Source of the DNA: an uncultured Actinomycetes bacterium
GTDB taxonomy: Bacteria > Actinomycetota > Thermoleophilia > Solirubrobacterales > Solirubrobacteraceae
Length of the DNA stretch: 64,000 bases
NCBI GenBank assembly: GCA_963721255.1
Contig: CAVRIM010000004.1
Location: 81,190 to 145,189 of the forward strand
Direction: 5' to 3'
Below are positions 11,616-64,000 of the stretch, one piece after another. The stretch's first letter is position 1. Every line of letters begins with the position of its first letter. Both the position numbers and the translations under genes were made by a program. The notes under the pieces were generated by a model, which was given only the letters and a program-made list of their open reading frames with translations, did no database searches and had not been told where the DNA came from.

Positions 11616-11647
11616 CCGCGGCGGCGCGGGCGGAGACCTAGGGACGC

Positions 11648-12552
11648 GTGTCCGCCCAGCCCGCACCCGCGCCTGACAAGGGCCCGGCGAGCCATCAGAC
11701 CGCTCGCCGGGCTCTTCTGGCGCATCCGCAGCCTCCAGGTCGGGTCGCTGCTGGCCGCTGCCGCTGGGCTGGCTGGGGATCGTCTACCTCGGCTCGCTCG
11801 TCGTCCTGCTGATCACGGCGTTCTGGACGCTGAACGACTTCACGGGCCTGATCGTCAAGGGGTTCAGCCTCGACAACTTCAAGCTGATCTTCACCGAGCC
11901 GGTGTACCGCAGGATCGTCCTGCGGACGGTGTCGCTGGCGGCGCTCGTCACCGTCACCGACATCCTGCTGGCGTTCCCGATCGCGTTCTTCATGGCGCGC
12001 GTCGTGGGCGCGCGGACGAAGGGCCTGCTCGTCGTCGCGGTGCTGATGCCGCTGTGGGCGAGCTACCTCGTGAAGGTCTACTCGTGGCGCACGATGCTGT
12101 CCACGAACGGCGTCATCAACTGGTTCCTCGATCCGCTCGGCCTGCACGTGCCGACGTCCGGCTACATCCGCGTGTGGATCGTGATGGCGTACCTCTGGCT
12201 GCCGTACATGATCCTGCCGCTGTACGCGGGCCTCGAGCGGATCCAGGACTCGCTGCTCGACGCCTCCGGCGACCTCGGCGCGCGCCCGTGGCGCACGTTC
12301 CGCAGCGTCGTCCTGCCGCTCGCGCTGCCGGCGATCGTCGCCGGCTCGATCTTCACCTTCTCGCTGACGCTCGGCGACTACATCACGCCGCAGCTCGTCT
12401 CGAACACGCAGTTCATCGGCAACGTCGTCTACGCCAACGTCGGCATCGCGAACAACCTGCCGCTCGCGTCCGCGTTCGCGACGGTGCCGATCGTGATCAT
12501 GCTCGTGTACCTCCTGATCGCGCGCCGGCTCGGCGCGTTCGAGGCACTCTGA
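11648..12552 (+). CDS. ABC transporter permease (PotB-like), 5' part interrupted about twice (~11690, ~11755)
   Basis: ORF 11902-12552 and its upstream in-frame extension (LPLGWLGIVYLGSLVVLLITAFWTLNDFTG...), with the EAA-type loop LLDASGDLGARPWRTFRSVVLPLALPAI. The extreme N-terminus (RPLAGLFWRIRSLQVGSLLA) lies in another frame. The start (GTG 11648) is uncertain. Confidence 0.75.
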
Positions 12553-29891: not shown

Positions 29892-29906
29892 GCGACACGT
29901 GGAGCT

Positions 29907-32175: not shown

Positions 32176-32202
32176 GGCGGTGGTCCTCGGTCGCGGGGTG
32201 GT

Positions 32203-32419
32203 TCAGGCGACGTCGTAGCCGGCGTCGTCGATGGCGTTGCGGATCGGCGGCGTCGTCGAGGGCGGCGCCGGTGACGACGACCTTCTTGGCCGCGAGGTCG
32301 ACGGCGACGGCGGAGACGCCGTCGAGCTTCGCGACCTCGTCCGTGATGGCGACGCGGCAGTGCTCGCAGCTGACGCCCGGGACGGCGTAGGTGATCTGGG
32401 TGGTGGCGGTGTCGGTCAT
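32203..32419 (-). CDS. copZ: copper chaperone (HMA domain), frame interrupted once (~32243)
   Basis: ATG 32417-32419 gives MTDTATTQITYAVPGVSCEHCRVAITDEVAKLDGVSAVAVDLAAKKVVVTGAALDDAA. The alternative frame then gives IRNAIDDAGYDVA*, with the stop at 32203-32205. Confidence 0.82.
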
Positions 32420-32444
32420 CGGAGTCGTCCTTGCTGGTGGTGGT

Positions 32445-33363
32445 CTAGCGGGCGGTTGCGTCCTGCGTGAACGCGGCGGTGTGCACGCGCCCACCGGTCT
32501 GGAACTGGACGAAGAGGCGGTAGGACCCCGGCTTCGGCAGCTCGGCGTCGAACGTGATCGTGCCCGCCGCGAGGTCCTTCGACGCGGGATGCACGTGCGA
32601 GTACTCGAGGCCCGGCGCGTGCAGCGCGACGAGGTGCCCGTAGGCGCCGAGGTAGGGCTGAAGGTCCGTGACCGGCCGGCCGTGGCGGGTGACGCTGAAG
32701 CTCAGCGTCGACTCGCGCCCCGCGGTCAGCGTCGCCGGCCGGTGGAGCGACACGCGGTAGCCGTCGACGCTCGCGGTCGTCGACGCGCCGGGCAGCGGCA
32801 CGGTGCTCGCTGCTCCGGGAGCGCGTCAGCTCGGTCCCGAGGACGTAGCGCCGGCCGCCGGTCGTGAAGTCGGCGAGCGCGCGGTAGCGCCCCGGCTGCC
32901 GCAGCGTCATGTCGACGGAGAACGTGCCGTCGGGGGCGAGCGCCGGATGAAGGTGCTGGTAGCCGGTGAGGTCCGAGCGCACGACGATGAGGTGCACGAG
33001 CTTGGTCTGATCGCGCGTGAAGCTGCGCACGGCGTCGCCGTTGCAGTCGACGATGCGAAAGCGCCAGGTGGCGCTGCGGCCGGTGGGCAGCGTGCGCGTG
33101 CGGGGGTCGAGCGTGAGGCCGCCGAGCTTCGAGCGCGAGCCGTCGGCGCCGGCGACCATCGGCGCCATCGACGCCCCGCTCTCGGCCTGCCCGGCGTTGG
33201 ACATGCCGCCGCCCGCCATCGCGCCGCCCTGGCCGCCGGACGCGACCCGCAGGCAGTTCTGGAACGGCGGCGTCGCGTCGGTCGCGCTGCCGATGGCGGC
33301 GGCGCCGCCGCCGATGACGGCGAGGCCCAGGGCGAAGGAGGCGAGTCGGGTGGCGGTGTGCAT
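32445..33363 (-). CDS. secreted copper-island protein with two Ig-like (YtkA/FixH-like) His-rich domains, frame interrupted once (~32815)
   Basis: ORF 32416-33363 gives the N-terminus (signal; ...KLVHLIVVRSDLTGYQHLHPALAPDGTFSVDMTLRQPGRYRALADF). ORF 32445-32801 gives the second copy (DLQPYLGAYGHLVALHAPGLEYSHVHPAS...PKPGSYRLFVQF). The domain name is a guess. Confidence 0.65.
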
Positions 33364-33447: not shown

Positions 33448-33486
33448 GATGTGCACCACACAGGCACCGAAGAGGAACGCGCACGC

Positions 33487-33780
33487 ATGACACCGACGAC
33501 CGAGACGCACGGCTACTCCGGCAACAAGGACCCGCTGATCAAGCGCCTGCGGCGCATCGAGGGCCAGGTCCGCGGGATCGAGGGCATGGTCGACGGCGAC
33601 CGCTACTGCATCGACATCCTCACGCAGATCTCCGCGGTCCAGGCCGCGCTCGACAAGGTCGCGCTCGGCCTGCTGACCGATCACGCCGAGCACTGCGTCA
33701 TCGGCGCCGCGCAGGACGATCAGCCCGAGAAGACGCAGGAGCTGATGACGGCCGTCGCGCGCCTGATGCGCCGCGGCTGA
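33487..33780 (+). CDS. csoR: CsoR-family copper-sensing transcriptional repressor
   Basis: ORF 33451-33780. ATG 33487 is preferred (GAAGAGGAA 8 nt upstream; the GTG 33451 start would overlap the operator). LIKRLRRIEGQVRGIEGMVDGDRYCIDILTQISAVQAALDKV...DHAEHCV, giving the C-H-C ligand set. Confidence 0.92.
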   Translation: MTPTTETHGYSGNKDPLIKRLRRIEGQVRGIEGMVDGDRYCIDILTQISAVQAALDKVALGLLTDHAEHCVIGAAQDDQPEKTQELMTAVARLMRRG

Positions 33781-33784
33781 GACC

Positions 33785-33807
33785 GGTGCGCCGTGTTTCG
33801 GCGCACT
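33785..33807 (+). terminator. candidate terminator hairpin after csoR
   Basis: gtgcgcc-gtgtttc-ggcgcac, a 7-bp stem that starts 5 nt after the csoR stop. No U-tract. Confidence 0.3.
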
Positions 33808-33829
33808 GATCTGCGGGAAAGCCCGTGAT

Positions 33830-34189
33830 ATGTCGATCCGCGCCGCGGCGCACCAGCGAAACGTCCGAAGGCCGTCGGATGATGCACGTGCAGTGGCACG
33901 AGATCTGACGATCTGCAGCGCCTGCGGTGGCCACTTCGTCTACCCGCTCGACTGGGCGGCGGTGGGCACGCAGCACTGGCGCATCGAGCTGCGCTGCCCC
34001 GACTGCGAGGCGCGCGGCACGATCGTCGAGCGGCAGCCGGTCGTCGATCGCTTCGACGAGCTGCTCGAGCAGGGATCCGCCGAGCTGGCCCGCGCGCTCC
34101 ACGCGCTCGTGCAGAGCGACATCGACGCCGAGGTCGCGCAGCTGCACGACTCGCTGGCCACCGGCCGCCTGCGTCCCGAGGACTTCTGA
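33830..34189 (+). CDS. hypothetical small zinc-ribbon-like protein (CxxC...CxxC)
   Basis: ORF 33830-34189. ICSACGGHFVYPLDWAAVGTQHWRIELRCPDCEARG, then a helical acidic tail. No family recognised. Confidence 0.5.
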   Translation: MSIRAAAHQRNVRRPSDDARAVARDLTICSACGGHFVYPLDWAAVGTQHWRIELRCPDCEARGTIVERQPVVDRFDELLEQGSAELARALHALVQSDIDAEVAQLHDSLATGRLRPEDF

Positions 34190-34194
34190 GCCGG

Positions 34195-37100
34195 CTAGCT
34201 CACGTACGTGCTGATCGCCGGCGCCTGCGCGGACACGTTGCCGGCGGCGTCGAGCGCCTCGACCGTGTACGTGTAGGTCCTGCCGTTGGAGAGGTCGATG
34301 TCGGCGTAGCTCGTGGCCGTCGGCTGGGCGATCATCGTGTACGCACCGGTGTTGACCTTGCGGTAGACGCGGTACTTGGTGACGGCGATGTTGTCCGTCG
34401 AGGCCGTCCACGAGAACGTGATCGAGTGGTTGGAGGCGTTCTTGACGAGCGCGAGGTTCGTCGGGACGGTCGGCGCCTGGGTGTCGCCGGGCGTGACGGA
34501 GACCTGGTTGCTCGCCGCGCTCAGGTTCCCCGCCGCGTCGGTGGCCTTGACCGTGTACAGGTAGGCGGTGCCGTTGGTCAGCCCGGTGTCGGTGTACGAC
34601 GGGCCCGACGGGCGAGCCGACGAGCACGCCGCCGCGGTAGACCTTGTAGCCGGTCACGCCGACGTTGTCCGTCGACGCCGTCCAGGTGAGCGACGCCGAT
34701 CCCGTGCCCGGGGTGCCGACGAGGCTCGCCGGCGCGCTCGGAGCGGTGGTGTCCGGGACGACCGGCGCGACGGGCGTCGCCGAGACGGCGCCCGACTGCG
34801 CGGACGCGTTGCCCGACCCGTCGACCGCCGCCACCTTGTAGCTGTACGCGGTGCCGTTCGTCAGGCCCGTGTCGACGTAGTACGGCGTCGCCGGGGACGC
34901 GACGAGCACGCCGCCGCGGTAGACCTTGTAGCCGGTCACCGCGACGTTGTCGGTCGACGCCGTCCACGACAGCGCGACCTGCGCGTCACCCGGCGTCGCG
35001 GTCAGGCCGGACGGCACGGTCGGCGCCGTCGTGTCCGCCGGCGTCGCCGCGACCGCCGCCGTCTGCGCCGAGGCGTTCCCCGCGGCGTCGACCGCGGCGA
35101 TCTTGTAGCTGTAGGCGGTGCCGTTCGTGAGGCCGGTGTCGGTGTAGCTCGTCCCGGTGGGCGCGGCGATCAGGACGCCGCCGCGGTAGACGCGGTAGCC
35201 GGTGACGCCGACGTTGTCGGTCGAGGCCGTCCACGACAGCGCGACCTGCGTGCTGCCCGGGGTCGCGGTCAGGCCCGCCGGCACGCTCGGCGCCGTGGTG
35301 TCGGGCGGCGCGACGGGCGTCGCGGATGCCGCGGCCGACTGCGCCGAGGCGTTCGCGGAGCCGTCGACGGCCGCCACCTTGTAGCTGTAGGCGGTCCCGT
35401 TCGCGAGGCCCGGTGTCGGTGTAGTACGGGCGTCGCCGGGGAGGCGATCAGCACGCCCCCGCGGTAGACCCTGTAGCCGGTCACCGCGACGTTGTCCGTC
35501 GACGGCGTCCAGCTCAGCGAGACCTGCGTGTCACCCGGGGTCGCCGTGAGGCCGGACGGAACGGTCGGCGCCGTCGTGTCGGCCGGCGTGGCCGACGCGC
35601 TGCTCGCGGTCGAGACGTTGCCGGCGGCGTCGCGCGCCTTGACCGTGTAGCTGTAGAGCGTCCCGTTCGTGAGGCCCGGTGTCGGTGTAGGACGTGCCGG
35701 CCGGCGAGGCCACGAGCACGGCTCCGCGGTAGACGTCGTAGCCGGTCACGCCGATGTTGTCGCTCGACGCGCCCCAGGACAGCGCGACCTGGCGGTCCCC
35801 GGCCGTGGCGGTCAGCCCGGGCGGCGCGCCCGGCGGGGTCGTGTCGATCACGATCGGGGCGACGGGCGTCGCGGACACCGGCGAGCTCTGGGGCGAGGTG
35901 TTGCCGGCGGCGTCGGCCGCGGCGATCCGGTAGCTGTAGGAGGTCCCGTTCGGCCAGGCCGGTGTCCGTGTAGAACGGCGTGCCCGGCGAGGCGATGAGC
36001 GCGCCGTCGCGGTAGACGCGGTAGCCGGTGACGGCGACGTTGTCGGTCGACGGCGTCCAGCTCAGCGAGACCTGCGTGTCACCCGGGGTCGCCGTCACGG
36101 AGCCCGGGGTCGTCGGCGCCTGCGTGTCGGCCGGCGTCCCGGAGACGGGGCTGCACTGCGCGGAGGCGTTGCCCGCCGCGTCGACCGCGGCGACCCGGTA
36201 GCTGTACGCGGTCCCGTTCGTCAGGCCGGTGTCGGTGAACGTCGTGCCCGACGGCTGCGCGATCAGCGCGCCGTCGCGGTAGACCTTGTACCCGGTCACC
36301 GCGACGTTGTCCGTCGACGCGGTCCAGTTCAGCGCGACCTGCCCGTTGCCGGGCGTCGTGGCGAGGCCCGCGGGAACGCTCGGCGCGGTCGTGTCCGAGG
36401 ACGATCGGCGCGACCGGCGTCGCGGAGACCGCGGCCGACTGGGCGGAGGCGTTCGCCGAGCCGTCGACGGCCGCCACCTTGTAGCTGTACGCCGTGTCGT
36501 TCGTGAGGCCGGTGTCGACGTAGTACGGCGTCGCCGGCGAGGCGACGAGCACGCCGCCGCGGTAGACGCGGTAGCCCGTCACGCCGACGTTGTCCGTCGA
36601 GGCCGTCCACGACAGCGCGACCTGCGCGTCGCCCGGCGTCGCGGTCAGGCCCGCGGGCACGCTCGGCGCGATCGTGTCGGCCGGCGTGGCCGACGCGGCG
36701 CTGGCGGTCGAGACGTTGCCCGCGGCGTCGCGCGCCTTGACGGTGTAGCTGTAGAGCGTCCCGTTCGTGAGGCCCGGTGTCGGTGTAGGAGGTGCCGGGG
36801 ACGACGGCGACGGGCGTCGCGCCGCGGTAGATCTCGTAGGCGGTGACGGCGGTGTTGTCCGTCGACGCGTTCCACGCGAGGGCGACCTGGCGGTCTCCGG
36901 GCGTGGCGGTGAGGCCGGGCGGCGCGCTCGGCGGGGTCGTGTCGAGGATGATCGGCGCCTGCGGCGTCACCATCACCGCGGTCGACTGCGCGGACTCGTT
37001 GCCGCTGCCGTCGACGGCGGTCACCGTGTAGCTGTAGGCGGTGCCGTTCGTGACGCCCGTGTCGAGGTGGTAGGGCGTCGTCGGCGAGGCGACGAGCACG

Positions 37101-38048
37101 CCGCCGCGGTAGACGCCGGTAGCCGGTGACGGCGACGTTGTCGGTCGGCGCCGTCCAGGTCAGGCTCACCTGCGCGTCACCCGGTGTCGCGGCGAGGCCG
37201 GTCGGGGTGCCCGGCGCCGTCGTGTCGGCGGGGGTCGCGTTCGCGGTCGCCGCGACCGACACGTTGCCCGCCTGGTCGAAGGCGAGGACGGTGTAGGCGT
37301 AGCCGGTGCCGTTGACGAGCCCGGTGTCGGTGAACGTCGTGCCCTCCTGGAAGCTGATCGGCGCGCCGTCGCGGCGCAGCTCGTAGTAGACGACCTTGAC
37401 GTTGTCGGTGGAGGCGCCCCAGCTCAGCGCGACCTGCCGGTCACCGGCGACCGCCTGGAAGCTCGGCGGGCTGCTCGGCGCCTGCGTGTCGGCGCCCGCG
37501 CCCGGGGCGACCGGCGTCGAGGAGACCGTCGCCGGCGCCGAGGCGTTGCCCGCGGCGTCGACCGCGGCCACCTGGTAGTCGTAGCGCGTCCCGTTCGCGA
37601 GGCCGGTGTCGGTGAACGACGTGGACTGCACCGTCGAGACGACGGCGCCGTTGCGGGACACGCGGTAGCCGGCGACGCCGACGTTGTCGCTCGAGACGTT
37701 CCAGACGAGGACGACCTGGCTGCGGCCGGGCGCGGCCTCCAGGCCGGACGGCGTCGTCGGCGGCGTCCTGTCCCCGCTCGCGGCGTTGCTCGGAGGAAGC
37801 ACGGCGCAGACGAGGACCCAGCGCTTCTTCCAGACGCGCTTGCGCTTCAGCTTCCCGTGAACGCGGACCTTCACCGTCACGCGCACGCGCTTCTTCACCT
37901 TCGTCAGCGTGGTTCCGGCGCGGCACTTGGGCGCCTTCGCGGCGCCCGTGGCGAGCACCCCGCCCGTGACCACGCCGAACGCGATCGGGGCGAAGATCGA
38001 CGTCATCAGCATGAACAGCGCGAGGACCGCTGTGAGCTTCCGCAACAC
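34195..38048 (-). CDS. giant membrane-anchored/secreted protein with 13 tandem fibronectin type III domains, frame interrupted at least 8 times
   Basis: Pieces are in ORFs 36645-38168, 36329-37099, 36079-36660, 35514-36299, 35531-35878 and 33698-35377, plus my third-frame C-terminus (...[56 protein letters not shown], stop at 34195-34197). I counted the unit DTxAPxxPxGLxAxPGDxQVxLSWxASTDNVxVTGYxVYRxG...TDTGLxNGTxYxYxVxAxDxAGNxS 13 times. Proposed start is GTG 38046-38048 (GGAG 8 nt upstream), then a TM segment [27 protein letters not shown]. Confidence 0.8.
34200..37760 (-). repeat. tandem coding repeat array, about 285-290 nt period x 13 (FN3 modules), with several copies near-identical at the DNA level
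   Basis: Recurrent strings, e.g. gtagaccttgtagccggtcac-gcgacgttgtc-gtcgac and gccgttcgtgaggccggtgtcggtgta, at about 290-nt spacing. Confidence 0.8.
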
Positions 38049-38373
38049 GGGAACCACTCCATCGGGGGGAGGGACGGGGTTCCGCGGCCATCGTCCGGCC
38101 GGACACCCGACTTGAGCGCCCGGCGGAACTGCCGCCGCGCCGCCCGAATAGCGGTGCAATGCCTGCAATCGGCGTCACGCGGCGAGCGGTCCGGCGCGGC
38201 GCGCCCGGCGGCAGAACTTCCTGCAAAGCGGCGCATGATTGCGTGCGTCCGGTGCGGGTTTCCCGGCCCACGGGTGGTGGTGTCCCGCAGCGGGTCCATC
38301 CACTTCCACCGGATGAATCGGCGGTCCTCGTGCAGCACGATCGAATCGTCCGGTGAGATCAGGGAGGCTTGTG

Positions 38374-40645: not shown

Positions 40646-43099
40646 CTACTCGACGACGCGCAGCGATCCTGAGAGGTCCGTGCGTCGCAGGCGGCGCAGG
40701 GTCAGGAGCGGTGCGATGCCGACCACGACCATCCCGGCGACGATGGCCAGGGCGTAGGTGGCCGGTGCGACCGCGTTGATGATGCCGAGGTCGGGCATCG
40801 TCTCGGGCACGCTGGTGGTGAGGATCCACGTGAGCACGGCGTGCCCGGCGGCCACTCCGACGGCGGTGCCGAGGGCGCCGATGAGCAGCGCCTCGATGAT
40901 CTCGCCTCGCATGGCTCGTGCAACAGGGACGCCGTGCGCGAACATCGTCGCGTGCTCACGAGTGCGCTCGTCGGTGTTGATCGCCGTGGCGTTGAACGCT
41001 ATGAGCAGGGCCATCGCGGCCGCGATCGCGACGGTGACGACGAGGATCTCGTTGAACTGTTCCAGGGTCTTGTCCACGGCGTCGGTGGTCGCCGCCGCGC
41101 CCTGCACCGCGGTGATCTCGGGGAGGCGCAGGAGCTCGGCCTTGACGTCGTCGGCGGATCGCCCGGTCGCCGGGACGACCGAGAAGCGGTTGACGAGGCC
41201 CGGAACCCCGAGGGCCGCCGCGCCCGCGCTGTTGGTGTAGGCCAGGAAGCGCAACGGGCTGGTGTGGATCCCGGTGACGGGCAGCCTCGTGCTGACCAGC
41301 CGGAATGTTCGCGGGCCGGTCGGGACGGGATGGACCACCCGCACACGGTCGCCGACCCTGACGTGAAGCGTGTCGGCGGCGCGTTGCGCGATGAGCAGGC
41401 CGGGTCGGCCGCGCGGCAGCGCGCCGGTCTCGAGCGTCGGTTGCCAGAGCGGCCGCCGATCCGCCACCGTCTCGAGCGCCACGTCGAGCCGTCGGCCGCC
41501 TGCCAGGAGAGTGGAGGCCAGGCGCAGCGACGGCTGGCTTGCTCCGACGCTCGCCGCTCCGGTGACCCTTCGCGCCGTCGTGCTGTCGCTCCGCTGCACG
41601 CTGGTGAGATCGGCGGTCAGGCGTTGGGTCGAGCCGGCGAGCGCCTCGTTGCGGCTCGCCCGGAGCGTGGCGTCGAAGGAGTCGATCATGCCCGCCATCG
41701 CGATGACGATCGTCACGACCGCTCCGATCCCCAGCAGGGTCATGATCGTGCGCCGCGGGGTGCGCAGCACGTTGCGCAGGGGAAGGTTGGACAGGGCGCC
41801 GCCCGGGACGCGCAAGCCCTTGACCAGCCAGGCCAGTCCGCTGCTGCGAGCGGCGCGCGCGCCGACCTGGATCGCGTCGATCGGAGACACGCGCAGGGCG
41901 CGCCAGACGGGGACGGCGGCAGCGACGAGCGGTAGGACGAGTCCCAACACCGCGCCGCGGACGAACACGCCCGTCTGGAAGTCGACCGACACGACCGGGA
42001 GCGGGAAGAACTTGTCCAGGACCCCCGTGAGCCATGCGTCGGCGGCGAGGCCCACAGGGATGCCGAGCAGCACGCCCAGGAGCGCGATCTGCGCGCCCAG
42101 CAGGAGCGGGCGGCGTGCCAGCTTCCGTGGCGGGACACCGAGCGCCATGCCGATCCCGATCTCGCGACGCTGCGCCTCGACCGTGCGGCTGATCAGGTTG
42201 AACGCCGCGAACGTCGCCGCGGCCAGCATCAGGAAGGCGAAGATGCTGAGCATCTCCTGATCGCCCTCGGCGTCCTTGTAGATCATCCGGTGCGCCGGTT
42301 CGTCGGCGCGCGCGGTGACGGTGAAGCCGGCCGTCGGGAGGGCTGCGCGCAGGGCGCGCCGAGACCTGTGCGCGCACGGCGCGCGGGATCGGCGCCGGGG
42401 CGCAGCGCGGAGCACCAGCTGGTTGACCCGCCCGGGCTGGCCGGCGAGCGCCTGGACGGTGGGCAGCGGCGCGAAGAGGACCGCGAACGTCGACTCGGCG
42501 CCGAAGCCCGCGCCCGGCGCCGTGACGACGAAGTACTCGGGCGCCAGGGCCTGGCCGGTGTAGGCGACCCGCTGCCCGCCGGCCAATGTGAGCGCGCCCG
42601 CAGCGGGCAGGGAATGCGAGCGACCGAAGTTGTACTCCAGCGCGACGGCTGGACGGCCGGGCCCACCGGCAGCGGGCAGGCGTCCTCGACGCGCGTCGAG
42701 CATGTCGACCGCGGCTCCGACCGGCGTGCCGACGATGCGGCCCGGCACGATGATCGTGCGGCCCCCGGTGGACGCATCGACCTGCGTTGAGACGACGAGC
42801 CGCTCGGCAGCCGCCGCGACGTCAGCGCGCACCCCGCTGCGTGCGAGCGCCGAGCGCAGCCTGCCCTCGGGAGCCGTACTCCCCTCCACGAGCGAGAAGC
42901 GCAGATCGTGCATGTGCAGCGCGGCGAAGCTGCTGTCCGCGGAGTCGACCCGCCAGATCGACATGCTGCTCATGGACGCGTACATCCCGACGCCGAGAGC
43001 GAGCAGCACGGCGATCGACAGCACCTGAAAGCGATGCTGGCGGGCATCGCGCACCGCCCAGCGGATCCACAGCCGTTCGCGGTGCCAACGGCCCATCAC
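40646..43099 (-). CDS. ABC transporter permease with two FtsX domains (about 817 aa)
   Basis: ORF 40646-43099, intact. TM segments, large extracytoplasmic loops, and two FtsX-type C-terminal 4-helix modules. Confidence 0.85.
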   Translation of the reverse strand: MMGRWHRERLWIRWAVRDARQHRFQVLSIAVLLALGVGMYASMSSMSIWRVDSADSSFAALHMHDLRFSLVEGSTAPEGRLRSALARSGVRADVAAAAERLVVSTQVDASTGGRTIIVPGRIVGTPVGAAVDMLDARRGRLPAAGGPGRPAVALEYNFGRSHSLPAAGALTLAGGQRVAYTGQALAPEYFVVTAPGAGFGAESTFAVLFAPLPTVQALAGQPGRVNQLVLRAAPRRRSRAPCAHRSRRALRAALPTAGFTVTARADEPAHRMIYKDAEGDQEMLSIFAFLMLAAATFAAFNLISRTVEAQRREIGIGMALGVPPRKLARRPLLLGAQIALLGVLLGIPVGLAADAWLTGVLDKFFPLPVVSVDFQTGVFVRGAVLGLVLPLVAAAVPVWRALRVSPIDAIQVGARAARSSGLAWLVKGLRVPGGALSNLPLRNVLRTPRRTIMTLLGIGAVVTIVIAMAGMIDSFDATLRASRNEALAGSTQRLTADLTSVQRSDSTTARRVTGAASVGASQPSLRLASTLLAGGRRLDVALETVADRRPLWQPTLETGALPRGRPGLLIAQRAADTLHVRVGDRVRVVHPVPTGPRTFRLVSTRLPVTGIHTSPLRFLAYTNSAGAAALGVPGLVNRFSVVPATGRSADDVKAELLRLPEITAVQGAAATTDAVDKTLEQFNEILVVTVAIAAAMALLIAFNATAINTDERTREHATMFAHGVPVARAMRGEIIEALLIGALGTAVGVAAGHAVLTWILTTSVPETMPDLGIINAVAPATYALAIVAGMVVVGIAPLLTLRRLRRTDLSGSLRVVE

Positions 43100-43894
43100 T
43101 CACCAGCGCAGGTCGGAGATCTCGACCTGGCCACCCTCGGGGGGACCCAGCCGCACGACACGCCCGCTGGAGAGCTCGACCACGCGGTCGGCGACGCGCG
43201 CGATCTCGCGGTTGTGCGTTACGACCAGGACGGCGCGGCCTGTGTGCGCCTGTGCGTGCAGCAGCTCGAGGATCTGGACGCCGGTCCGGAAGTCGAGCTC
43301 CCCCGTCGGCTCATCGGCCAGAAGTATGGGGTTGCCGGACGCGAGCGCCCGGGCGATCCCGACACGCTGCTGCTCGCCGCCCGAGAGCTCGTGCGGGAAG
43401 TGCCCGAGGCGGTCGCCGAGACCGACGCGCTCGAGCATCTGCCCCGCAACCCCCGTCGGGTCGGCGCGACCGGCGACGTCCGCGCCGAACTCGGCGTTCT
43501 CCAGCGCCGTCAGCGCCGGGAACAGGTTGAACGTCTGGAACACGAAGCTCACGCCGTGACGACGGAACTCGAAGAGCTCCTTGCGCGAGGCGTGCGTGAT
43601 GTCCTGGCCGGCCACCATGACCCGGCCCTCGGACGGCGAGTCAAGCGCACCGATCATGTTGAGCAGCGTCGTCTTTCCAGACCCGGACGGGCCGAGCACG
43701 ACGATGAACTCCTCCGCGCGCACCTCAAAGGACACGTCGGCCAGCGCGATGACCTCGCTTCCACCCACGTGGTAGCGCCGCCCGACGCCCTCCAGGCGGA
43801 CCAGCACATCCCCCGCCGACGGAGCGGGCGTGACCGGTTGGGCGTCAGTCAGGCTCACGGTCCGACGGTAAGCCGTAGGAACCATCGCCGCCAA
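43100..43894 (-). CDS. ABC transporter ATP-binding protein (MacB/LolD-like)
   Basis: ORF 43100-43894. [53 protein letters not shown]. Its stop abuts the permease start. Confidence 0.9.
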   Translation of the reverse strand: MAAMVPTAYRRTVSLTDAQPVTPAPSAGDVLVRLEGVGRRYHVGGSEVIALADVSFEVRAEEFIVVLGPSGSGKTTLLNMIGALDSPSEGRVMVAGQDITHASRKELFEFRRHGVSFVFQTFNLFPALTALENAEFGADVAGRADPTGVAGQMLERVGLGDRLGHFPHELSGGEQQRVGIARALASGNPILLADEPTGELDFRTGVQILELLHAQAHTGRAVLVVTHNREIARVADRVVELSSGRVVRLGPPEGGQVEISDLRW

Positions 43895-53859: not shown

Positions 53860-54963
53860 TCAGCGAACCATGAGTTCGGCCGACCAGCGGTTCAGCACCT
53901 GTCCGGCGTCCTTGGCGCTGTTCAGGTAACGCCCGCGAACCTTCACCCGGTCACCCGAAGTCTTTGACTCGAGAATGTCGCAGGCGTCCTTCATCGACGT
54001 CACGCTCGCGCCCTCGATGCTCGTCACGAGGTCACCGAAGATGATGTTCGCCTTCTGCGCCGTGGAGCCGGTATCGCTTCCCAGAACGAACATCCCGTCG
54101 ATTCCGGATCGCTCGAGCGTCGCCTGCGTCTCCGCGCCGAGCCGCGCGCGCCCACTGGCCTTCCAGTCCGGGTCGCTCGCGAACACATCGGCCACCGGCA
54201 CGCTCGCAAGCGGCGCAAGGCTCCAGCCGATGTAGGCACTGTCCTTCCCGGCTGTCAACGACGGCAGGAACCGCTTGGCGTGGTTGATCGAGATCGCGTA
54301 GTACTGGCCCTGCACCGCGCGGTTGTTCTGCTCGGTGTTCGCGAGCGTGTTGATGCCGACGAGCTTGCCGTCGTCGTCGACGAGCGCGCCGCCCGAGTTG
54401 CCCGGGTTCACCGGCGCCTGATGCTGGATCGTCGACGCATACCGCGGCAACGACGGGTCGGGCTCAGCCGCCACGTCGGTCGAGGAGACGGTCCCGTCGG
54501 TCGCGACGACACGCTGCTGTTCGGGATTCTCGAACGACACCGGATAGCCCAGCGCCGTCACGTGCTGCCCGAGCTTGACCTTCGACGAGTCGCCGAGCGC
54601 GAGCGCCTTGAGCCCCGGGGTCCGCTCACTGAAGGCGATGACCGCGAGATCCTCGCACGGTGCCTGGGCAACCACGCGCGCCGGGCCCTCCGTCGCCGCC
54701 CGGTCCCCGGCCTTCGCACGCAATGCGGACGCACCGGCGATCACGTGCGCGTTCGTGAGCACGTAGCCACGCTTGGCGTCGATCACGACGCCCGTACCCG
54801 ACGATGTGCTGTCACCAACGCGGCCTGTGATCTGCACGACACTTGGGCGAACCTGAGCGATGATCTGCTCCTCGGAGAGCTTGTCGCTCCCGCCGCAGGC
54901 GGCGAGCGGTGCTGCCAGAATCACAGTCACGCTCACGAGGATGCGAGACGACGGGCGCTGCAT
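53860..54963 (-). CDS. HtrA/DegP-family trypsin-like serine protease with PDZ domain (lipoprotein signal)
   Basis: ORF 53860-54963, intact. AAPLAACGGS; GYVLTNAHVI (His); NPGNSGGALVD (Ser); C-terminal PDZ-like region. Confidence 0.88.
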   Translation of the reverse strand: MQRPSSRILVSVTVILAAPLAACGGSDKLSEEQIIAQVRPSVVQITGRVGDSTSSGTGVVIDAKRGYVLTNAHVIAGASALRAKAGDRAATEGPARVVAQAPCEDLAVIAFSERTPGLKALALGDSSKVKLGQHVTALGYPVSFENPEQQRVVATDGTVSSTDVAAEPDPSLPRYASTIQHQAPVNPGNSGGALVDDDGKLVGINTLANTEQNNRAVQGQYYAISINHAKRFLPSLTAGKDSAYIGWSLAPLASVPVADVFASDPDWKASGRARLGAETQATLERSGIDGMFVLGSDTGSTAQKANIIFGDLVTSIEGASVTSMKDACDILESKTSGDRVKVRGRYLNSAKDAGQVLNRWSAELMVR

Positions 54964-58271: not shown

Positions 58272-59960
58272 ATGTCGCACGAACGCATCGTCGTCGTCAG
58301 CGGGGCGGCAGCGGGCAGCACCTTCGAGGTCGACCACGAATTCGTGGTCGGGCGCGGCGAGAGCGGCATGGGCAATCTCCGCGGCGACTCGGAGATCTCT
58401 CGCCGCCACGCCCGCTTCTACCGGGGTGAGGACGGCCGGCTCCTGATCGAGGATCTCGGCTCGACCAACGGGACGCTCGTCAACGGCCGGACGATCACCG
58501 GGCCGCGACTGCTCGCACCGGGGGACGAGGTGCAGGTCGGCGAGACGGTGTTGCGCTACGAGGCCGCGGCGACGCAGGTCGGCGAGACCGTGATCGGGGC
58601 ACGCCCAGAGGGTGCCGCTGCTGCCCCGCCCCCACCGGTCACGCCATCTGCAGCCCCGGCCCCGCAGCCGGCCGCCGCCGCGCACCCGGAGTCCGGGGCC
58701 CGCCGCCGCGCGCTGCCGGCGCTGATCGCCGTGCTGCTCGTCGCCGCCGCGCTGGTCGGCGCATATCTCATCGGCAAGAACAACGGCGACAGCACCACGT
58801 CGACCACCAGTGCCGCCGTCCCGGCCACGGGTGCCGGGAGCGCGTCCGGCGCCGCCGGGATGGTGTACACCGAGTCCAACGGCGCCGCCGGGAACTCGGT
58901 GATCGCTTTCGCGCGCGCGTCCGACGGCAAGCTGACGCAGGTCCAGTCGATCTCCACCGGCGGCAAGGGCGGTCTGCAGCCGCAGCCGGGCTGTGACCCG
59001 CCGGGCGGCTGCCCGATCCTGGACACCCAGGGTGAGGTCGCGCTGACGAAGGACCGCAAGCTGGTGTTCGCCGTCAACGCCGGGAGTGACACGGTCACCT
59101 CGTTCCGCGTCACGCCGAGCGGCCTGGAGCGAGGCAGCACAGTCAGCTCGGGCGGCAAGTTCCCGAACAGCCTCACGGTCCGTGGGCATCTGCTGTACGT
59201 GCTCAACTCCAACAGCCTCAACATCGCCGGCTACACGTTCTCGGACACGGGCGCCATGACGCCGATATCCGGGTCCAACCAGCCGCTGGTCGGCGGGAAG
59301 GTCCCGACGCTCGCGCGTCAGGTCGGCTTCGACAACACGGGCTCCACGCTCGTGGTGTCGCTGTTCGGCAACCCGATGAAGCCCGCCGGCGCGAAGTCGC
59401 TCAACACGTTCCCGGTCTCCGCGAGCGGCGCGGCGGGTGCGGGCACGGCGTATGACGCGTCGAGCGCGCTGCCCTTCGGGTTCGCGTTCGACCCGGTCCA
59501 CAACAACCTCGTCGTGTCGCAGGTCACCGAGCTGACACCGGGCGCGGGCCAGACCGGGAGCTACCGCCTCTCGGGCGGCGCGCTGACGTCGATCTCGACG
59601 CAGCCCTCCGGCGGCACGGCGCCGTGCTGGGTCGTGATCACGAAGGACGGCAAGTTCGTGTTCGTTGTCAACACGGGTGGCGGTGCGCCGGGCGGCTCGA
59701 GCGTCGCGCGCTATTCGCTGGCGGCCGACGGCACGCTGACCGAGCTCGGCGTCAACAGCCAGTCGAGCTCCGAGTTCGCCAAGACGGACGCGGTCCTCAG
59801 CGAGGACGATAAGTACCTGTACGTGCTCAACCCGTTCGTCATGGGCCAGGACAAGAGCCGGATCGACGAGTACAGGGTGACCAGCTCAGGCGACCTCACC
59901 CTCATGGGCCAGACGCCGTCGAACATGCCGGTGGGCGTCAGCGGCCTCGTCGGCTACTGA
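58272..59960 (+). CDS. FHA domain - TM - extracytoplasmic lactonase-like 7-bladed beta-propeller protein
   Basis: ORF 58272-59960, intact. FHA: FVVGRGES...SRRHARFYRGEDGRLLIEDLGSTNGTLVNGRTI...GDEVQVGETVL. Pro/Ala linker; TM LPALIAVLLVAAALVGAYLI; then repeats such as KLVFAVNAGSDTVTSFRV, HLLYVLNSNSLNIAGYTF, KFVFVVNTGGG...VARYSL, KYLYVLNP. Confidence 0.85.
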   Translation: MSHERIVVVSGAAAGSTFEVDHEFVVGRGESGMGNLRGDSEISRRHARFYRGEDGRLLIEDLGSTNGTLVNGRTITGPRLLAPGDEVQVGETVLRYEAAATQVGETVIGARPEGAAAAPPPPVTPSAAPAPQPAAAAHPESGARRRALPALIAVLLVAAALVGAYLIGKNNGDSTTSTTSAAVPATGAGSASGAAGMVYTESNGAAGNSVIAFARASDGKLTQVQSISTGGKGGLQPQPGCDPPGGCPILDTQGEVALTKDRKLVFAVNAGSDTVTSFRVTPSGLERGSTVSSGGKFPNSLTVRGHLLYVLNSNSLNIAGYTFSDTGAMTPISGSNQPLVGGKVPTLARQVGFDNTGSTLVVSLFGNPMKPAGAKSLNTFPVSASGAAGAGTAYDASSALPFGFAFDPVHNNLVVSQVTELTPGAGQTGSYRLSGGALTSISTQPSGGTAPCWVVITKDGKFVFVVNTGGGAPGGSSVARYSLAADGTLTELGVNSQSSSEFAKTDAVLSEDDKYLYVLNPFVMGQDKSRIDEYRVTSSGDLTLMGQTPSNMPVGVSGLVGY

Positions 59961-59992
59961 TATGGAGGGTGGTCCGGGTGGCCGCGCGGCCG

Positions 59993-61554
59993 TCAGTGCC
60001 CGGCGCCCTCCGTGGGGAACTTCAGATCCTCCCCACGGATGAGCACGACCGTCGAGATCGCCCCGATCAGGGCGACGGCACCGGCCACGATGAGGATCTC
60101 CTGTAGGCCTGCCACATAGCTCACGTGTGCGGCGTCGATGAGCGCGAGGCGCGTGCTCTCGTCGGGCACGGTGGCGGCGACACTCTGCGTGAGTCCGCCC
60201 GAGATCGCGTCCGCGATATCGGTGGTGTTCCCGCCCAGCGTCGTCCCAGCCAGCGAAGACTGGACGTCCGTGCGCACGCTGTGCTGGAGCAGGGTCCCCA
60301 GTACGGCGATCCCGGCTGTCTGCCCCACCTCGCGGAAGGTGTTGTTGATGCCCGAGGCGATGCCGCCCTGTGACGGCGGGACCACGCCGAGCGACGCCGC
60401 GGCCATGATCGGGTTCACGATCCCGGTCCCCCATCCGCCGAGGATCATCCCGGGGATGATCGCCGTCCAGGTCGAGCTCGAGTCCAGCACGAACGTCATG
60501 GACAGCGAGCCCGCGGCGATCAGCACGAGGCCGAACGTCAGGGTGATCCGCGGGGACACCTTCTCCGCGATCGCGCCGGCGATGGGTGCGACGGACAGCG
60601 CAGCCCCGGTGAAGACGACGAGGCGCAGGCCGGCGCCGATCGGCGAGTACCCGAGGATCGACTGGAACCAGACCGTCAGGAAGAACAGGAGCGTGATCGA
60701 CGCGAACGACATCGTGAACGCGGCCGAGTTCGCGCCGACGAACGTGCGGTTCCGGAACAGGCTGAGGTCGAGCATCGGCTGTCTGCGGCGCGTCTCGATG
60801 ACGATGAAGGCGATGAAGAGGACGACCGACCCGCCAAAGCATCCGAGGATCAGCGGGCTGGTCCAGCCCGCGGTGTTGCCGCGGATCGTCGCGTAGATCG
60901 CCAGGAACATCGCGCCGGAGAACGTCACGACGCCGGGGAAGTCGACCCGCGTCGGGCGGCCGGGGATGTTCACGAGCTTTCGCTGGATGACGATGAAGTG
61001 ACGATCCCGATCGGGAGGTTGACGTAGAAGACGGCCTCCCAGCCGAAGGCGTCGGTGAGCAGGCCGCCGACGATCGGCCCGAGCGCGACCGCGACGCCGC
61101 TCGCAGCGCCGAACGCGGCATATGCCACGCCGCGCTCCTGCGGCGGGAACTCCTGCACGATCAACGCGAGCGCGGTCGCGAACATGACCGCGGCACCGAT
61201 GCCCTGCACCGCGCGGGCGATGTCCAGGAACACGGCGTCGGGTGCCTGGGCGCACGCGACCGAGGCGACGGTGAAGATGACCAGCCCGATCACGAGCAGG
61301 CGTTTGTGCCCGAAGATGTCGCCCAGCGAGCCCGCCGTGAGCAGCGCCACGGAGAGGGTCAGCGTGTACGCGTCGACCACCCACTGCAGCTCCTCGAACG
61401 ACGGATTCAGCGCGTCCGCGATCGACGGCCGCGCCACGGCCACGATCGTCACGTCGAGCAGCAGCATGAACGAGCAGACGACGACCGCCGCGAGCGTCCA
61501 CCACTTGCGGTTGCCCGATTCCGCGGCGAGCAGCGCCACGGGCTGGCTGAACAC
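59993..61554 (-). CDS. DHA2-type (14-TMS, EmrB/QacA-like) MFS transporter module, frame interrupted once (~60997); apparently continuous with the upstream tandem-FHA module
   Basis: ORF 60970-61881 frame gives NRKWWTLAAVVVCSFMLLLDVTIVAVARPSIADAL...LTAGSLGDIFGHKRLL...NLPIGIV. ORF 59993-61504 gives FIVIQRKLVNIPGRPTRVDFPG...SLFRNRTFVGANSAAF...LGGWGTGIVNPIM.... An independent GTG start at 61552-61554 is possible. Confidence 0.85.
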
Positions 61555-62317
61555 CTCGCGAACCCGGGAGGGTTGCGGGGGCAGTCCGGGCCGCCTGTGC
61601 AGGCTCGTGAGCTGCTCGCCGCGCGGGACCTCGCCCACGATGTCCGGCGGCTCGCCCGGCCGCCGGCGAGCGACCTGTGGGCTCGGTCGTCGACCGGCAG
61701 CGTCAGCTCGATCATCGCCATGCCGATCTGGATCCGGTCGCCGCCGACAAGGTTCTCGTGCTCCACCGACGCGCTCACCGTTGATGTACGTGCCGTTCGT
61801 CGAGTGGAGGTCGTCGATCCAGGCCTTGCCGTCCTGCACCGTGACCTTCGCGTGGCGCCGGGAGACCTCGGAGTCGATCACCCGCAGGTCGCTTCCCTCG
61901 TCACGGCCGATCGTCGCACTGCCGTGCAGCGTCGTCGACTCGCCCGCGCCCCACCCGCTGACGATCGTCAGCGCGCCTTCGCCGCTCGCTTCCGGAGCGC
62001 GCCGCGGCGGGTGCGGGGGCGGGCACGAACTCGAGCGTGCACCCGCCGAGCTCGACCTTGTCGCCGGCGCGCAGCGCGTAGGGCCCGTCGAGGCGCTCGC
62101 CGTTCACGAACGTGCCGTTGCTGGAGCCGAGGTCCTCGAGCACGGCCTCCGTGCCACGGATCACGATCCGCGCGTGCCGTCGGGAGACCTCGCCGCTGGG
62201 ATCGGTGAGGACGACGTCGGCGCCCGTGTCGCGGCCGAGCACGACGTCCGACACCAGCTCGAACGTGCGCTCCGCGCCGTCGCCCTGCGCGATGCGCAAC
62301 GTCCCGATCGCCGTCAT
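61555..62317 (-). CDS. tandem FHA-domain module (FHA1 - linker - FHA2 - Pro-rich linker), frame interrupted about 3 times; no stop before the MFS module
   Basis: FHA1 is ORF 61901-62317 (VVLGRDTGADVVLTDPSGEVSRRHARIVIRGTEAVLEDLGSSNGTFVNGERL...GDKVELGGCTLEF). FHA2 is in the ORF 60970-61881 frame (TIGRDEGSDLRVIDSEVSRRHAKVTVQDGKAWIDDLHSTNGTYINGERV), with its last strands in ORF 61449-61778 (VEHENLVGGDRIQIGMAMIELTLPVDD). It then returns to the 60970-61881 frame (PSPQVARRRPGEPPDIVGEVPRGEQ...). Breaks are at ~61985, ~61772 and ~61690. Confidence 0.75.
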
Positions 62318-62557: not shown

Positions 62558-63010
62558 GTGATGAGACCTCCACACGCCTCCATTGGCGAACGAGCGTCGC
62601 GCACGCCCGCCCGCTCGCGGAGCCTGAGGGCCTCCCGACCTTTGCTGCCGGCTCTCGTCGCCGTTGCGCTCCTGGCCGCTGGGTGCGGCACCCGGGCGCA
62701 CCCGGCGCCCGTCACCCGTGGGTCGAGCGGACCGGTGCAGGTCTTGATGAAGACGCTGGAATTCACCCCCGCCGCCGTCCACGCCAACGTGGGGCAGCGG
62801 GTCGTCTGGATGAACGACGACAGCTCGCCGCACAACGTGACGTATGTGAGCGGCCCGCGGTTCACGTCCTCGCGGCTGATGCGACCGGGCGCGACGTTCT
62901 CGATCGGGCTCACGGCGCCCGGGACGATCCACTACTTCTGCACGATCCATCCGTGGATGAAGGCGACGATCGCCGTCTCCCGCGTGACGAGGGGGCGGAT
63001 CAGAGTGTGA
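62558..63010 (+). CDS. cupredoxin (plastocyanin/amicyanin-like) blue-copper lipoprotein
   Basis: ORF 62558-63010. LVAVALLAAGCG lipobox. VVWMNDDSSPHNV...GTIHYFCTIHPWMKATI supplies the His, Cys, His and Met type-1 Cu ligands. Confidence 0.8.
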   Translation: MMRPPHASIGERASRTPARSRSLRASRPLLPALVAVALLAAGCGTRAHPAPVTRGSSGPVQVLMKTLEFTPAAVHANVGQRVVWMNDDSSPHNVTYVSGPRFTSSRLMRPGATFSIGLTAPGTIHYFCTIHPWMKATIAVSRVTRGRIRV

Positions 63011-64000
63011 TCCCGAGCAGGTGGCACAGCAGTGCGAACCGATCCTCCCCCGGCGTCGCGGCGAGCGCGACCGACGGATGGAGCGCGACAGCGTACGTCG
63101 TGACGGAGCGGCCGGAGCCGGCCGTCGCGGTCGACGTCGCCACCAGGTTGCCGCAGAGCGCCGGCGCGGTCGCCTCCCCGGGCAGGCTGCGCTTGAGTTC
63201 GCTGCGATCCAGGACGTTGTCGTAGATCCCGTTGTGGTTGTAGTCGATGCCGTGCACGATCACGATCGCGTTGTTCGCGCGGATCGCCGCGGCGACCCCG
63301 GCGGGGACGGTGATCTTGCGCGAGTAGCGGATCGTCCCCGTGGTGGGAAAGCGCGGGAAGTTGAGGATGCTCTTGGGAGTGGTGTCACCACTCGAGGTCA
63401 GCGCCACCTGCGGCGGCCCGTAGAACGCGATCCCGTTGCTCGTGCTGATCGCCGCGTGCCCGTTGTGCAGGCGCGCCGCGGAAGCCGGCGGGCACTCGCC
63501 CTTACCGCCCGCGTGGATGTGCATCGCGTGTGGCGACCCGTTGAGCAGCCCGGCGGCATCGAGGGTCACCGCCGCGACATTCCCGTCGAGCCGGACGGTC
63601 GCGGCACCGCCGCCCGTCACCCGGTTCGTCGGCACGGGCCGCTGGGCGGACTCGAAAGGCTGCCCGGCCGGCTTCGGCTTGGAGGAGTCGTTCGAGCCCA
63701 ACACGACCACGGCGACGACGGCCAGGCCGGCGACCAGCGCCAGGGCCGCCGCGATCCCCAGGCCTCGACGGCGCCGGCGTCTTGTTGGGGTCGTGCCCGC
63801 GGGGCCCGCCGCGGCCGCTCCTGGTGCGGCGAGGTCCGCGGCCGGTGATGGGAACCCGCCCAGCGTCGCCTCCAACGGCCGAACGGGCTCCGGGGCCGCT
63901 GCGCGAGTCTCCGCGCCATCCCGCGCGGCCGCTGCGCTCGCCGGCTCGCTCTCCGCGCCCGGGCCGGCCGGGGTCGCCGCCTCGTCGGGTGCGGCGAGCG
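63000..64000 (-). CDS. CHRD-domain-like membrane-anchored protein; the 5' end is unresolved and may run off the window
   Basis: ORF 63000-63875. TM GIAAALALVAGLAVVAVVVLG, then AATVRLDGNVAAVTLDAAGLL...HAMHIHAGGKGECP...IVIVHGIDYNHNG. The track start at 63875 is a TTG. The frame stays open with no ATG or GTG all the way to position 64000. Confidence 0.55.
   Translation of the reverse strand, partial: LAAPDEAATPAGPGAESEPASAAAARDGAETRAAAPEPVRPLEATLGGFPSPAADLAAPGAAAAGPAGTTPTRRRRRRGLGIAAALALVAGLAVVAVVVLGSNDSSKPKPAGQPFESAQRPVPTNRVTGGGAATVRLDGNVAAVTLDAAGLLNGSPHAMHIHAGGKGECPPASAARLHNGHAAISTSNGIAFYGPPQVALTSSGDTTPKSILNFPRFPTTGTIRYSRKITVPAGVAAAIRANNAIVIVHGIDYNHNGIYDNVLDRSELKRSLPGEATAPALCGNLVATSTATAGSGRSVTTYAVALHPSVALAATPGEDRFALLCHLLGITL

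Follow-up and report, generated by a model that had tools for sequence, protein, structure and literature searches.

The question raised by this locus is whether two FHA domains and a transporter of the major facilitator superfamily (MFS), lying one behind the other in different reading frames, form a single gene and, if they do, what the FHA domains would contribute to the transporter. The locus occupies positions 59993-62317 of a 64,000-nucleotide stretch of DNA from an uncultured Solirubrobacteraceae bacterium (contig CAVRIM010000004.1), here called the window. A first-pass annotation, made from the letters alone, had proposed that the parts are fused, as an MFS analogue of the mycobacterial exporter Rv1747. 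The orthologues described below indicate that the FHA-FHA-MFS fusion is a real, conserved gene design and no artefact of frame correction. With some reserve, we favour the reading that the window gene is the local orthologue of a family of two-FHA DHA2 MFS transporters, broken by assembly errors, and that its product is controlled by kinases through contacts between phosphothreonine (pThr) and the FHA domains.

The 64-kb window has a G+C content of 71.7 per cent. The parts of the gene, with residues numbered on the corrected product, are as follows.

59993-62317, minus strand: whole FHA-FHA-DHA2 MFS gene, interrupted by five single-base indels; corrected product of 773 residues
62389-62417, minus strand: promoter-like site TTGACG-17-GAGAAT, about 70 nt 5' of the ATG; a consensus match only
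62018-62317, minus strand: FHA1, residues 1-100; Pfam FHA match (1.1e-20) and beta-sandwich in an AlphaFold2 model
61984-62017, minus strand: inter-FHA linker, residues 101-111 (PAPAAARSGSD), with a predicted local distance difference test score (pLDDT) below 50; holds the inserted base 61985
61692-61983, minus strand: FHA2, residues 112-208, spread over two frames owing to the inserted base 61768
61513-61691, minus strand: linker between FHA2 and the first transmembrane helix (TM1), residues 209-267, disordered and rich in Pro, Arg and Thr; pLDDT below 50 at 209-242
60977-61512, minus strand: TM1-6 of the MFS domain, with the DHA2 motifs LLDVTIVAVARP (TM1), GSLGDIFGHKRLL (TM2-TM3 loop) and ALGPIVGGLL (TM5); base missing at 60998/60999
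60041-60940, minus strand: TM7-14 of the MFS domain, in a raw frame that differs from that of TM1-6

As deposited, these parts are spread over three overlapping open reading frames (ORFs) on the minus strand. Pfam assigns them a complete FHA domain (61901-62317(-), 1.1e-20), a partial FHA domain (6e-11) with the N-terminal half of MFS_1 (60970-61881(-), 2.1e-36 for the latter) and the C-terminal half of MFS_1 (59993-61504(-)). Three-frame translation and a plot of G+C at third codon positions (GC3) show the coding frame running 2 -> 0 -> 1 -> 0 -> 2 along 62317 -> 59993, with switches near 61985 (2 -> 0), 61770 (0 -> 1), 61680 (1 -> 0) and 61000 (0 -> 2), so the raw sequence is not one ORF. 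GC3 stays at coding level along the whole gene and, from about 61650 on, tracks frame 0 across the linker. The C-terminal third of FHA2 (LVGGDRIQIGMAMIELTLPVDDR) occupies a frame of its own. Read on beyond FHA2, frame 1 gives an Arg/Ser-rich tail with a stop at 61449 within TM1, as the first-pass annotation had described; its content, order and coordinates for FHA1, linker, FHA2, linker and MFS also agree with Pfam, the translations and the GC3 plot.

The frame changes resolve in nucleotide alignment with two orthologous loci, L001 and L002 (95.1 and 92.3 per cent identity to the window), both Illumina-type metagenome contigs from JGI. Relative to these, the window has one extra base at each of 61985, 61768, 61683 and 61676 and lacks one at 60998/9. 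The net length of the five indels is +3, and the first and last frames coincide. The earlier account of the frames held in that the corrected sequence runs without interruption from FHA2 into TM1, but it had not included that the frame shifts once more within the transporter, between TM6 and its central loop, parting TM1-6 from TM7-14. The linker it had quoted, beginning 'PSPQ', was out of frame; the orthologue-corrected reading is VDDRPTVARRRPGEPP, also given as VDDRPTVARRRPGEPPDIVGEV. Our first query was a conceptual 775-residue protein stitched from the frames, and later orthologue-guided correction gave 773 residues. The corrected protein aligns without gaps to the products of L001 (P0001, 96 per cent identity) and L002 (P0002, 89 per cent), and Pfam finds in it two FHA stretches and MFS_1 (3.7e-50).

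We searched 5.8 billion proteins with the stitched protein and analysed the best 120 clusters, all of which belong to one family. FHA and MFS_1 share a single ORF in 116 of the 120 clusters (eighty-seven with two FHA domains, twenty-nine with one). The four clusters without FHA are contig-end truncations (P0023, P0024) or come from frameshifted assemblies (P0042, P0117). P0001 and P0002 are intact single ORFs of 773 residues, with 95 and 88 per cent identity to the stitched protein, and further single-ORF orthologues exist at lower identity. No orthologue separates FHA2 from the transporter among the sufficiently complete members of these clusters; the orthologues neither encode two proteins throughout nor have a stop after FHA2 ahead of the MFS. 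The fusion suggested from the sequence alone is thus upheld for the family. A single fused product is likewise supported at family level, but the window copy as deposited is broken in five places and its public gene call has 222 residues.

When one genome per GTDB species was scanned, the query aligned from FHA1 through to the C-terminus at about thirty-two loci, with at best 75 per cent identity. Their labels are Solirubrobacterales, Solirubrobacteraceae or 'uncultured Actinomycetes', the exception being the truncated locus L056, in a metagenome-assembled genome (MAG) labelled Terriglobia. Matches in Streptomyces, Nocardia, Gordonia and Gaiella span the MFS part alone (residues about 268-764). 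More distant fused relatives, at 34-38 per cent identity and with one, two or three FHA domains ahead of MFS_1, came to light when 1.84 billion representatives were searched exhaustively with phmmer; one of them is labelled Candidatus Limnocylindrales. By these comparisons the family is a conserved set of Solirubrobacterales-type DHA2 exporters with an FHA module, with more distant relatives elsewhere. The same representative search returned P0234 (914 residues), which has seven consecutive FHA domains and no other Pfam domain. Another relative bears the JGI name 'pSer/pThr/pTyr-binding forkhead associated (FHA) protein/MFS family permease', so annotation pipelines had already seen the architecture. 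Our literature searches returned no paper on it and no characterised example, in line with the earlier remark that no MFS with this module is known to have been characterised.

In the tree of MFS domains, one-FHA forms are interleaved among two-FHA forms, and FHA1 was therefore lost or split into a separate gene more than once. The one-FHA forms carry an N-terminal T-R-x-R motif and have a separate, translationally coupled FHA gene upstream.

Both FHA domains look competent to bind pThr, as predicted from their conserved residues. Against PF00498 the corrected protein gives two stretches totalling 132 bits (cut-off 20.7). The pThr-binding residues of FHA1 are G28-R29 (62236-62231), S45-R-R-H48 (62185-62174) and N67-G-T69 (62119-62111), invariant in 35/35 two-FHA members except for R46 (34/35, one Gly); those of FHA2, G137-R138, S152-R-R-H155 and N174-G-T176, are invariant in 42/42 aligned members. 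The window copy keeps every canonical pThr-binding residue in both domains. Among solved structures, FHA2 matches GarA, OdhI and FhaA best (E about 1e-10). The FHA structures of Rv1747 (6cah, 1.2e-5; 6ccd, 2.2e-5) rank below these three, a GGDEF-FHA protein and EmbR.

DHA2 transporters have fourteen transmembrane helices and DHA1 transporters twelve; the DHA2 motifs are D2 in TM1 (lDxTvxnvAlP), A (GxLaDrxGrkxxl) and the antiporter motif C in TM5 (GPxxGG). The corrected protein scores 255.4 bits against the NCBIfam model TIGR00711 (DHA2/EmrB; cut-off 230.2) over residues 274-754, and D287, D332, G412-P413 and G416-G417 are invariant in forty-two members. An AlphaFold2 model of P0001, built from a 42-sequence family alignment (mean pLDDT 80.4, predicted TM-score 0.72), has two beta-sandwich FHA domains (1-100 and 112-208), disorder at 101-111 and 209-242, short juxtamembrane helices at 251-262 and fourteen transmembrane helices between residues 268 and 758. 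Its best Foldseek fold matches are QacA and EfpA (TM-score 0.87, target-normalised) and EmrB (0.83), and the same three proteins are the best sequence matches of residues 268-765 (E 3e-47 to 4e-34, identity 22-27 per cent). From this agreement of motifs, profile and predicted fold, we assign the transporter to the DHA2 family of the MFS (EmrB/QacA/EfpA-type, TCDB 2.A.1.3); proton coupling would follow from family membership. EfpA of mycobacteria, QacA of Staphylococcus aureus and EmrB of E. coli are 14-helix DHA2 exporters with the same TM1, TM2-TM3-loop and TM5 motifs but have no FHA domain or large N-terminal regulatory module. Their identity of just 22-27 per cent means that a substrate cannot be transferred from them, and the substrate-specific NCBIfam models (TcmA, LfrA, SmvA, QacA and others) all scored far below their cut-offs.

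Outside the domains, the family's cytoplasmic segments abound in Pro, Ala, Arg and Thr, and most members share a recurring linker motif, [QLV]-T-[RK]-[AVI]-R-x-[IV]-P. Its copy number varies from zero to nine, with the copies in tandem between the FHA domains; one-FHA proteins have a single N-terminal copy. P0028 has nine copies, mostly VTKAR repeats of the type ARQVPDDLGVTK. The inter-FHA linkers of P0028 (residues about 120-270), P0025, P0030, P0037, P0044 and P0053 consist of near-perfect tandem repeats of about twelve residues, up to nine of them, each with one Thr (e.g. ARQVPDDLGVTK or VTKARDIPDDIQ).

In 9,591 linker residues there are 138 instances of T-[RK]-x-R, where shuffled sequences give 5.6 +/- 2.4; the 58,113 MFS residues contain only two. 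The broader T-x-[AVI]-R was observed 201 times against 20.6 +/- 4.5 (about 10-fold enrichment) and occurs in 86/120 proteins; all these counts come from related sequences and hence are not independent. The strict form does not cover the window clade; the broader form does, yet misses 34/120 proteins. Distant instances, APTRVRERP and GATRVRARP, occur in P0135, a protein with three FHA domains and the label Limnocylindrales, and in P0270, which belongs to the same cluster and is labelled Verrucomicrobiota. That the number of copies varies, and that the motif reappears in remote relatives, speaks for a function of the linker Thr motif.

In the window clade the corresponding repeats, (R/Q)PT(V/A)(I/V), lie between FHA2 and TM1, and the clade's form of the motif is P-T-V-A-R. 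In its FHA2-TM1 linker the window keeps T213-V-A-R216 (61678-61666), exactly where two of the inserted bases, 61683 and 61676, fall; the same linker includes a conserved juxtamembrane segment, PPQPSRVREVFSQPVALL. Both the linker and the juxtamembrane segment are conserved as protein sequence. The inter-FHA linker of the orthologues reads PA(P/T)TR(S/T)GS.

The window and L001 share a gene order of Hanks-type kinase, opposite-strand cupredoxin, FHA-FHA-MFS and a convergent neighbour. The neighbours in the window are as follows.

63000-64000, minus strand: C-terminal part of a Hanks-type Ser/Thr kinase (TM segment and extracellular region); the kinase domain lies beyond the window end
62558-63010, plus strand: cupredoxin (plastocyanin/azurin-like) gene, between kinase and transporter
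58272-59960, plus strand: convergent, intact 562-residue gene with FHA, TM and a lactonase-type 7-bladed beta-propeller (Pfam)

The kinase stretch aligns to L001 at 95 per cent nucleotide identity without indels, and the L001 kinase gene encodes 632 residues (Pkinase, 1.7e-49). The transporter has its own 240-nt upstream region holding the promoter-like site and is therefore not in an operon with the kinase. Kinases also lie 3-7 kb away in three further loci. Adjacency is confined to the window and L001, and kinase synteny is weak support for a cognate pair.

A gene of the FHA-TM-beta-propeller type recurs near FHA-MFS genes in two clades; L021 and L027-L029 have homologues no more than 8 kb away. 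In L028 the gene (10724-12538) lies directly 3' of FHA-MFS on the same strand, and in L027, L021 and L029 it is near the 3' end. The syntenic position in L001 holds a shortened convergent gene (235 residues called; Pfam not looked up) whose DNA is 95 per cent identical to the window propeller gene. The 32-nt spacer between the convergent stops (59961-59992) includes a 24-nt segment absent from L001, with a palindrome, GGCCGCGCGGCC, as a possible small hairpin or terminator element.

A sister clade, at about 55 per cent identity, has a different setting. There the order is phosphoketolase, TPR protein, acetyl-CoA carboxylase carboxyltransferase, biotin carboxyl carrier protein, biotin carboxylase, small FHA protein, FHA(-FHA)-MFS and MMPL (L004 823-10969, L009 6601-13118 and about twenty further genome loci), and the stop of the small FHA gene overlaps the next start by 4 nt. 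Biotin carboxylase (accC) is found upstream within 8 kb in twenty-two of thirty-three genome loci, the small FHA gene upstream in about eighteen and MMPL downstream in about fifteen. This neighbourhood hints at Ser/Thr-kinase-linked lipid export. Together with the similarity to EfpA, it makes a lipid or envelope precursor a candidate substrate, as a lead and nothing more.

How might such a module act on a transporter? The closest precedent is Rv1747, an ABC exporter of Mycobacterium tuberculosis that carries two FHA domains at its N-terminus and is under the control of the kinase PknF. To our knowledge, it is the one protein for which direct FHA/phosphothreonine control of a transporter has been worked out. 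When T152 and T210 in its FHA-FHA linker are phosphorylated, they bind the FHA domains, which leads to compaction, oligomerisation and clustering (PMC8339232, PMC3138270, PMC13046807). The window protein resembles Rv1747 in having tandem cytoplasmic FHA domains N-terminal to an exporter on the same polypeptide, disordered Thr-bearing linkers and, in the window and L001, a Hanks-type kinase gene close by. It differs in being a secondary transporter (MFS_1/DHA2, with no ABC_tran match) instead of an ABC ATPase. In the window clade the inter-FHA linker has about 11 residues against about 100, the long disordered part lying between FHA2 and TM1, and the kinase is neither in an operon with the transporter nor conserved in its adjacency. 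The FHA domains are closer to GarA and OdhI (about 1e-10) than to Rv1747 (about 1e-5), so the fusion arose independently, by convergence. The analogy drawn by the first-pass annotation therefore holds for the layout; it does not extend to specific FHA homology, linker length or a kinase operon.

GarA and OdhI, the best solved matches of FHA2, offer a second comparison. Both are actinobacterial FHA regulators switched intramolecularly by a phosphorylated N-terminal Thr, which in GarA belongs to the ETTS motif. In one-FHA members of our family, the N-terminal Thr motif (e.g. PQLTRVRSV) lies roughly 20-30 residues before the FHA domain, in the same topology as ETTS. GarA and OdhI are small soluble regulators of metabolic enzymes, whereas here the module is fused to a transporter and the motif is another one; binding in cis is hypothetical. 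A more general parallel is found in plants, where the SPX-MFS vacuolar phosphate transporters (PHT5/VPT1) join an MFS to an N-terminal cytoplasmic ligand-sensing domain that gates transport. These are eukaryotic, belong to another MFS subfamily and sense inositol pyrophosphates instead of phosphothreonine.

With two pThr-reading FHA domains on the N-terminus, these pumps are probably controlled by protein kinases. In the mechanism we propose, Hanks-type Ser/Thr kinases would phosphorylate Thr in the short linker motifs (T-[RK]-[AV]-R in the family, P-T-V-A-R in the window clade). The FHA domains would then bind the linker pThr in cis or between neighbouring molecules, or pThr on the kinase or another partner, and binding would alter the transporter's activity by way of its conformation, oligomeric state or clustering. 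The phosphorylation, the FHA-motif binding and the effect on transport are each inferred from Rv1747 and GarA/OdhI. The family would then represent an FHA transporter design on an MFS instead of an ABC scaffold, present in the annotation of pipelines and undescribed in the literature searched, with phospho-regulation suggested by analogy.

Several observations weigh against kinase control of an intact window protein. L002, L003 and most other loci have no kinase gene within 8 kb, and the window's own kinase is parted from the transporter by a gene on the other strand. The inter-FHA linker of the window clade has just 11 residues, the window has Ala where the orthologues carry the Thr of that linker, and many members of the clade have no strict T-x-[AVI]-R match. 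Finally, the five indels sit in one gene, and none is in a homopolymer.

A more speculative extension, to which we attach limited confidence, is that one to three FHA domains would engage up to nine T-[RK]-[AV]-R phospho-sites in the protein's own linkers, and that these multivalent contacts would bring about a self-association, or a two-dimensional condensation, which kinases tune and which switches export. The family would then be a natural MFS counterpart of Rv1747. Should that be so, the substrate in the sister clade could be a lipid or envelope precursor, given its acetyl-CoA carboxylase, small FHA and MMPL neighbours. The natural variants (one, two or three FHA domains, zero to nine copies of the Thr motif, FHA1 fused or split) form a comparative series that could test how multivalent pThr-FHA contacts tune the activity and clustering of a membrane protein. 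In wider terms, this regulatory design arose a second time, independently, on a secondary, proton-driven exporter, and the family points to Ser/Thr-kinase control of efflux, possibly of lipid export, in Solirubrobacterales, which are abundant and largely uncultured soil Actinomycetota.

The FHA module might instead be mainly a docking scaffold, and not a gate. It would tether the pump to phosphorylated partners, for instance a kinase in its active state or proteins of lipid synthesis and export, or to a site in the cell, the linker Thr being incidental or serving only for kinase docking. Bacterial FHA proteins are often adaptors, and FhaA and GarA, both among the best solved matches here, are examples. 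The company the gene keeps fits such a role, with accC, the small FHA gene and MMPL around it in the sister clade and the FHA-TM-beta-propeller gene and the kinase next to it in the window clade. The Thr motif, however, belongs to the protein's own linkers, and its 10- to 25-fold enrichment, tandem amplification and cross-phylum recurrence favour self-recognition. We regard a predominantly scaffolding function as possible and not the likelier outcome, although scaffolding and self-recognition do not exclude each other.

A separate matter is whether the window copy works at all. Its indels may be real, and the copy a recently inactivated pseudogene of the family: five frame-breaking indels fall within 2.3 kb, none of them in a homopolymer, against one frameshifting indel (62983) in the flanking coding DNA, roughly 2.1 kb, that L001 has as well. 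The window-specific changes include the loss of the conserved inter-FHA-linker Thr to Ala, and the deposited gene call is a 222-residue fragment. The kind of change speaks for another origin. Natural pseudogene decay in bacteria is biased toward deletions of variable size, whereas here every indel is one base long, with four insertions to one deletion.

The same type of change also recurs elsewhere in the window. In the cupredoxin gene an inserted C at 62983 shifts the stop, so that AVSR* in L001 becomes AVSRVTRGRIRV* in the window, nine residues longer, and a C6-to-C5 homopolymer difference lies at 62990, in the short spacer beside the kinase stop. The copper P-type ATPase (Cu-ATPase) gene (29869-32494(-); two HMA domains, E1-E2 ATPase and HAD hydrolase) is split over at least four frames. 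Compared with metagenome contig L148, whose protein is 97 per cent identical over the Cu-ATPase segment used as query, it has three +1 insertions (31777, 31753, 31678) within 100 nt, inside a conserved membrane segment. The large fibronectin-type-III repeat gene (33698-38168(-)) looks frameshifted in several places, its ORFs, at least four in number (33698-35377, 35514-36299, 36079-36660, 36645-38168), lying in different frames. Across the transporter, cupredoxin and Cu-ATPase genes, all indels are single-base and insertions dominate, eight to two deletions.

Nor does the window branch bear a neutral signature. In a three-taxon count it has nine synonymous and twelve nonsynonymous changes, an omega of about 0.5 that equals that of the branch to intact L002, although a value resting on 21 substitutions is not decisive. 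Four to five indels against just 21 substitutions, and GC3 at coding level all along, are further points against decay. The indels are present in the deposited assembly, since P0291 (222 residues, sources NCBI and ENA; public call starting at 61638) is identical to the window ORF fragment including its frameshifted tail, ...IVTSSSSSESS; the four other members of its 90 per cent cluster are intact at 773 residues. At genome level the relatives are mostly 'MFD' MAGs, built from Nanopore data alone and given a single round of Medaka polishing (PMC12313526). Six long-read MAG loci of the family (L010, L019, L023, L024, L056, L061) also have no intact ORF across the gene, so frameshifts are a common feature of such data.

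Similar single-base insertions in other window genes make assembly error likelier than pseudogenisation. We judge the five indels to be most probably consensus errors of long-read metagenome assembly, and consider a pseudogene rather unlikely. With assembly error the most probable explanation, the organism most likely makes one 773-residue protein. Public annotation fragments the gene through these single-base indels, and surveys based on gene calls from long-read MAGs will therefore undercount such fusions.

We give very little credence to a division into two genes, a soluble FHA-FHA protein with the frame-1 tail and an MFS starting at an internal GTG, either 61554, named in the first-pass annotation, or 61638. 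The raw sequence has no single ORF, the gene caller reported the 222-residue MFS fragment from 61638, and the sister clade does have a separate small FHA gene ahead of the transporter. Yet FHA2, linker and TM1 lie in one ORF in every sufficiently complete orthologue, the FHA-less matches being truncations or frameshifts, and where the sister clade has a free-standing FHA gene, FHA2 is nevertheless part of the MFS polypeptide. GC3 tracks frame 0 through a linker whose sequence, like that of the juxtamembrane segment, is conserved as protein, and two genes would leave the breaks inside FHA2 and inside the MFS unrepaired. Separate FHA and MFS genes are ruled out by the orthologues. Programmed ribosomal frameshifting, for which the net length of +3 and the identical first and last frames might speak, has a negligible chance of being the explanation: it would need four or five shifts in both directions, and it is ruled out by the lack of a slippery sequence at the sites and by orthologues at 92-95 per cent nucleotide identity that have no shifts there.

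The window contains several copper-related genes besides the Cu-ATPase, namely a CsoR-type metal-sensitive repressor (33451-33780 plus strand), a YtkA-like match (32445-32801 minus strand) and the cupredoxin (62558-63010 plus strand). The YtkA-like match adjoining the Cu-ATPase is weak, below the Pfam cut-off. Two other parts of the window seem intact: a MacB/FtsX-type ABC permease and its ATPase (40646-43894(-)), and an HtrA-like trypsin-PDZ protease (53860-54963(-)).

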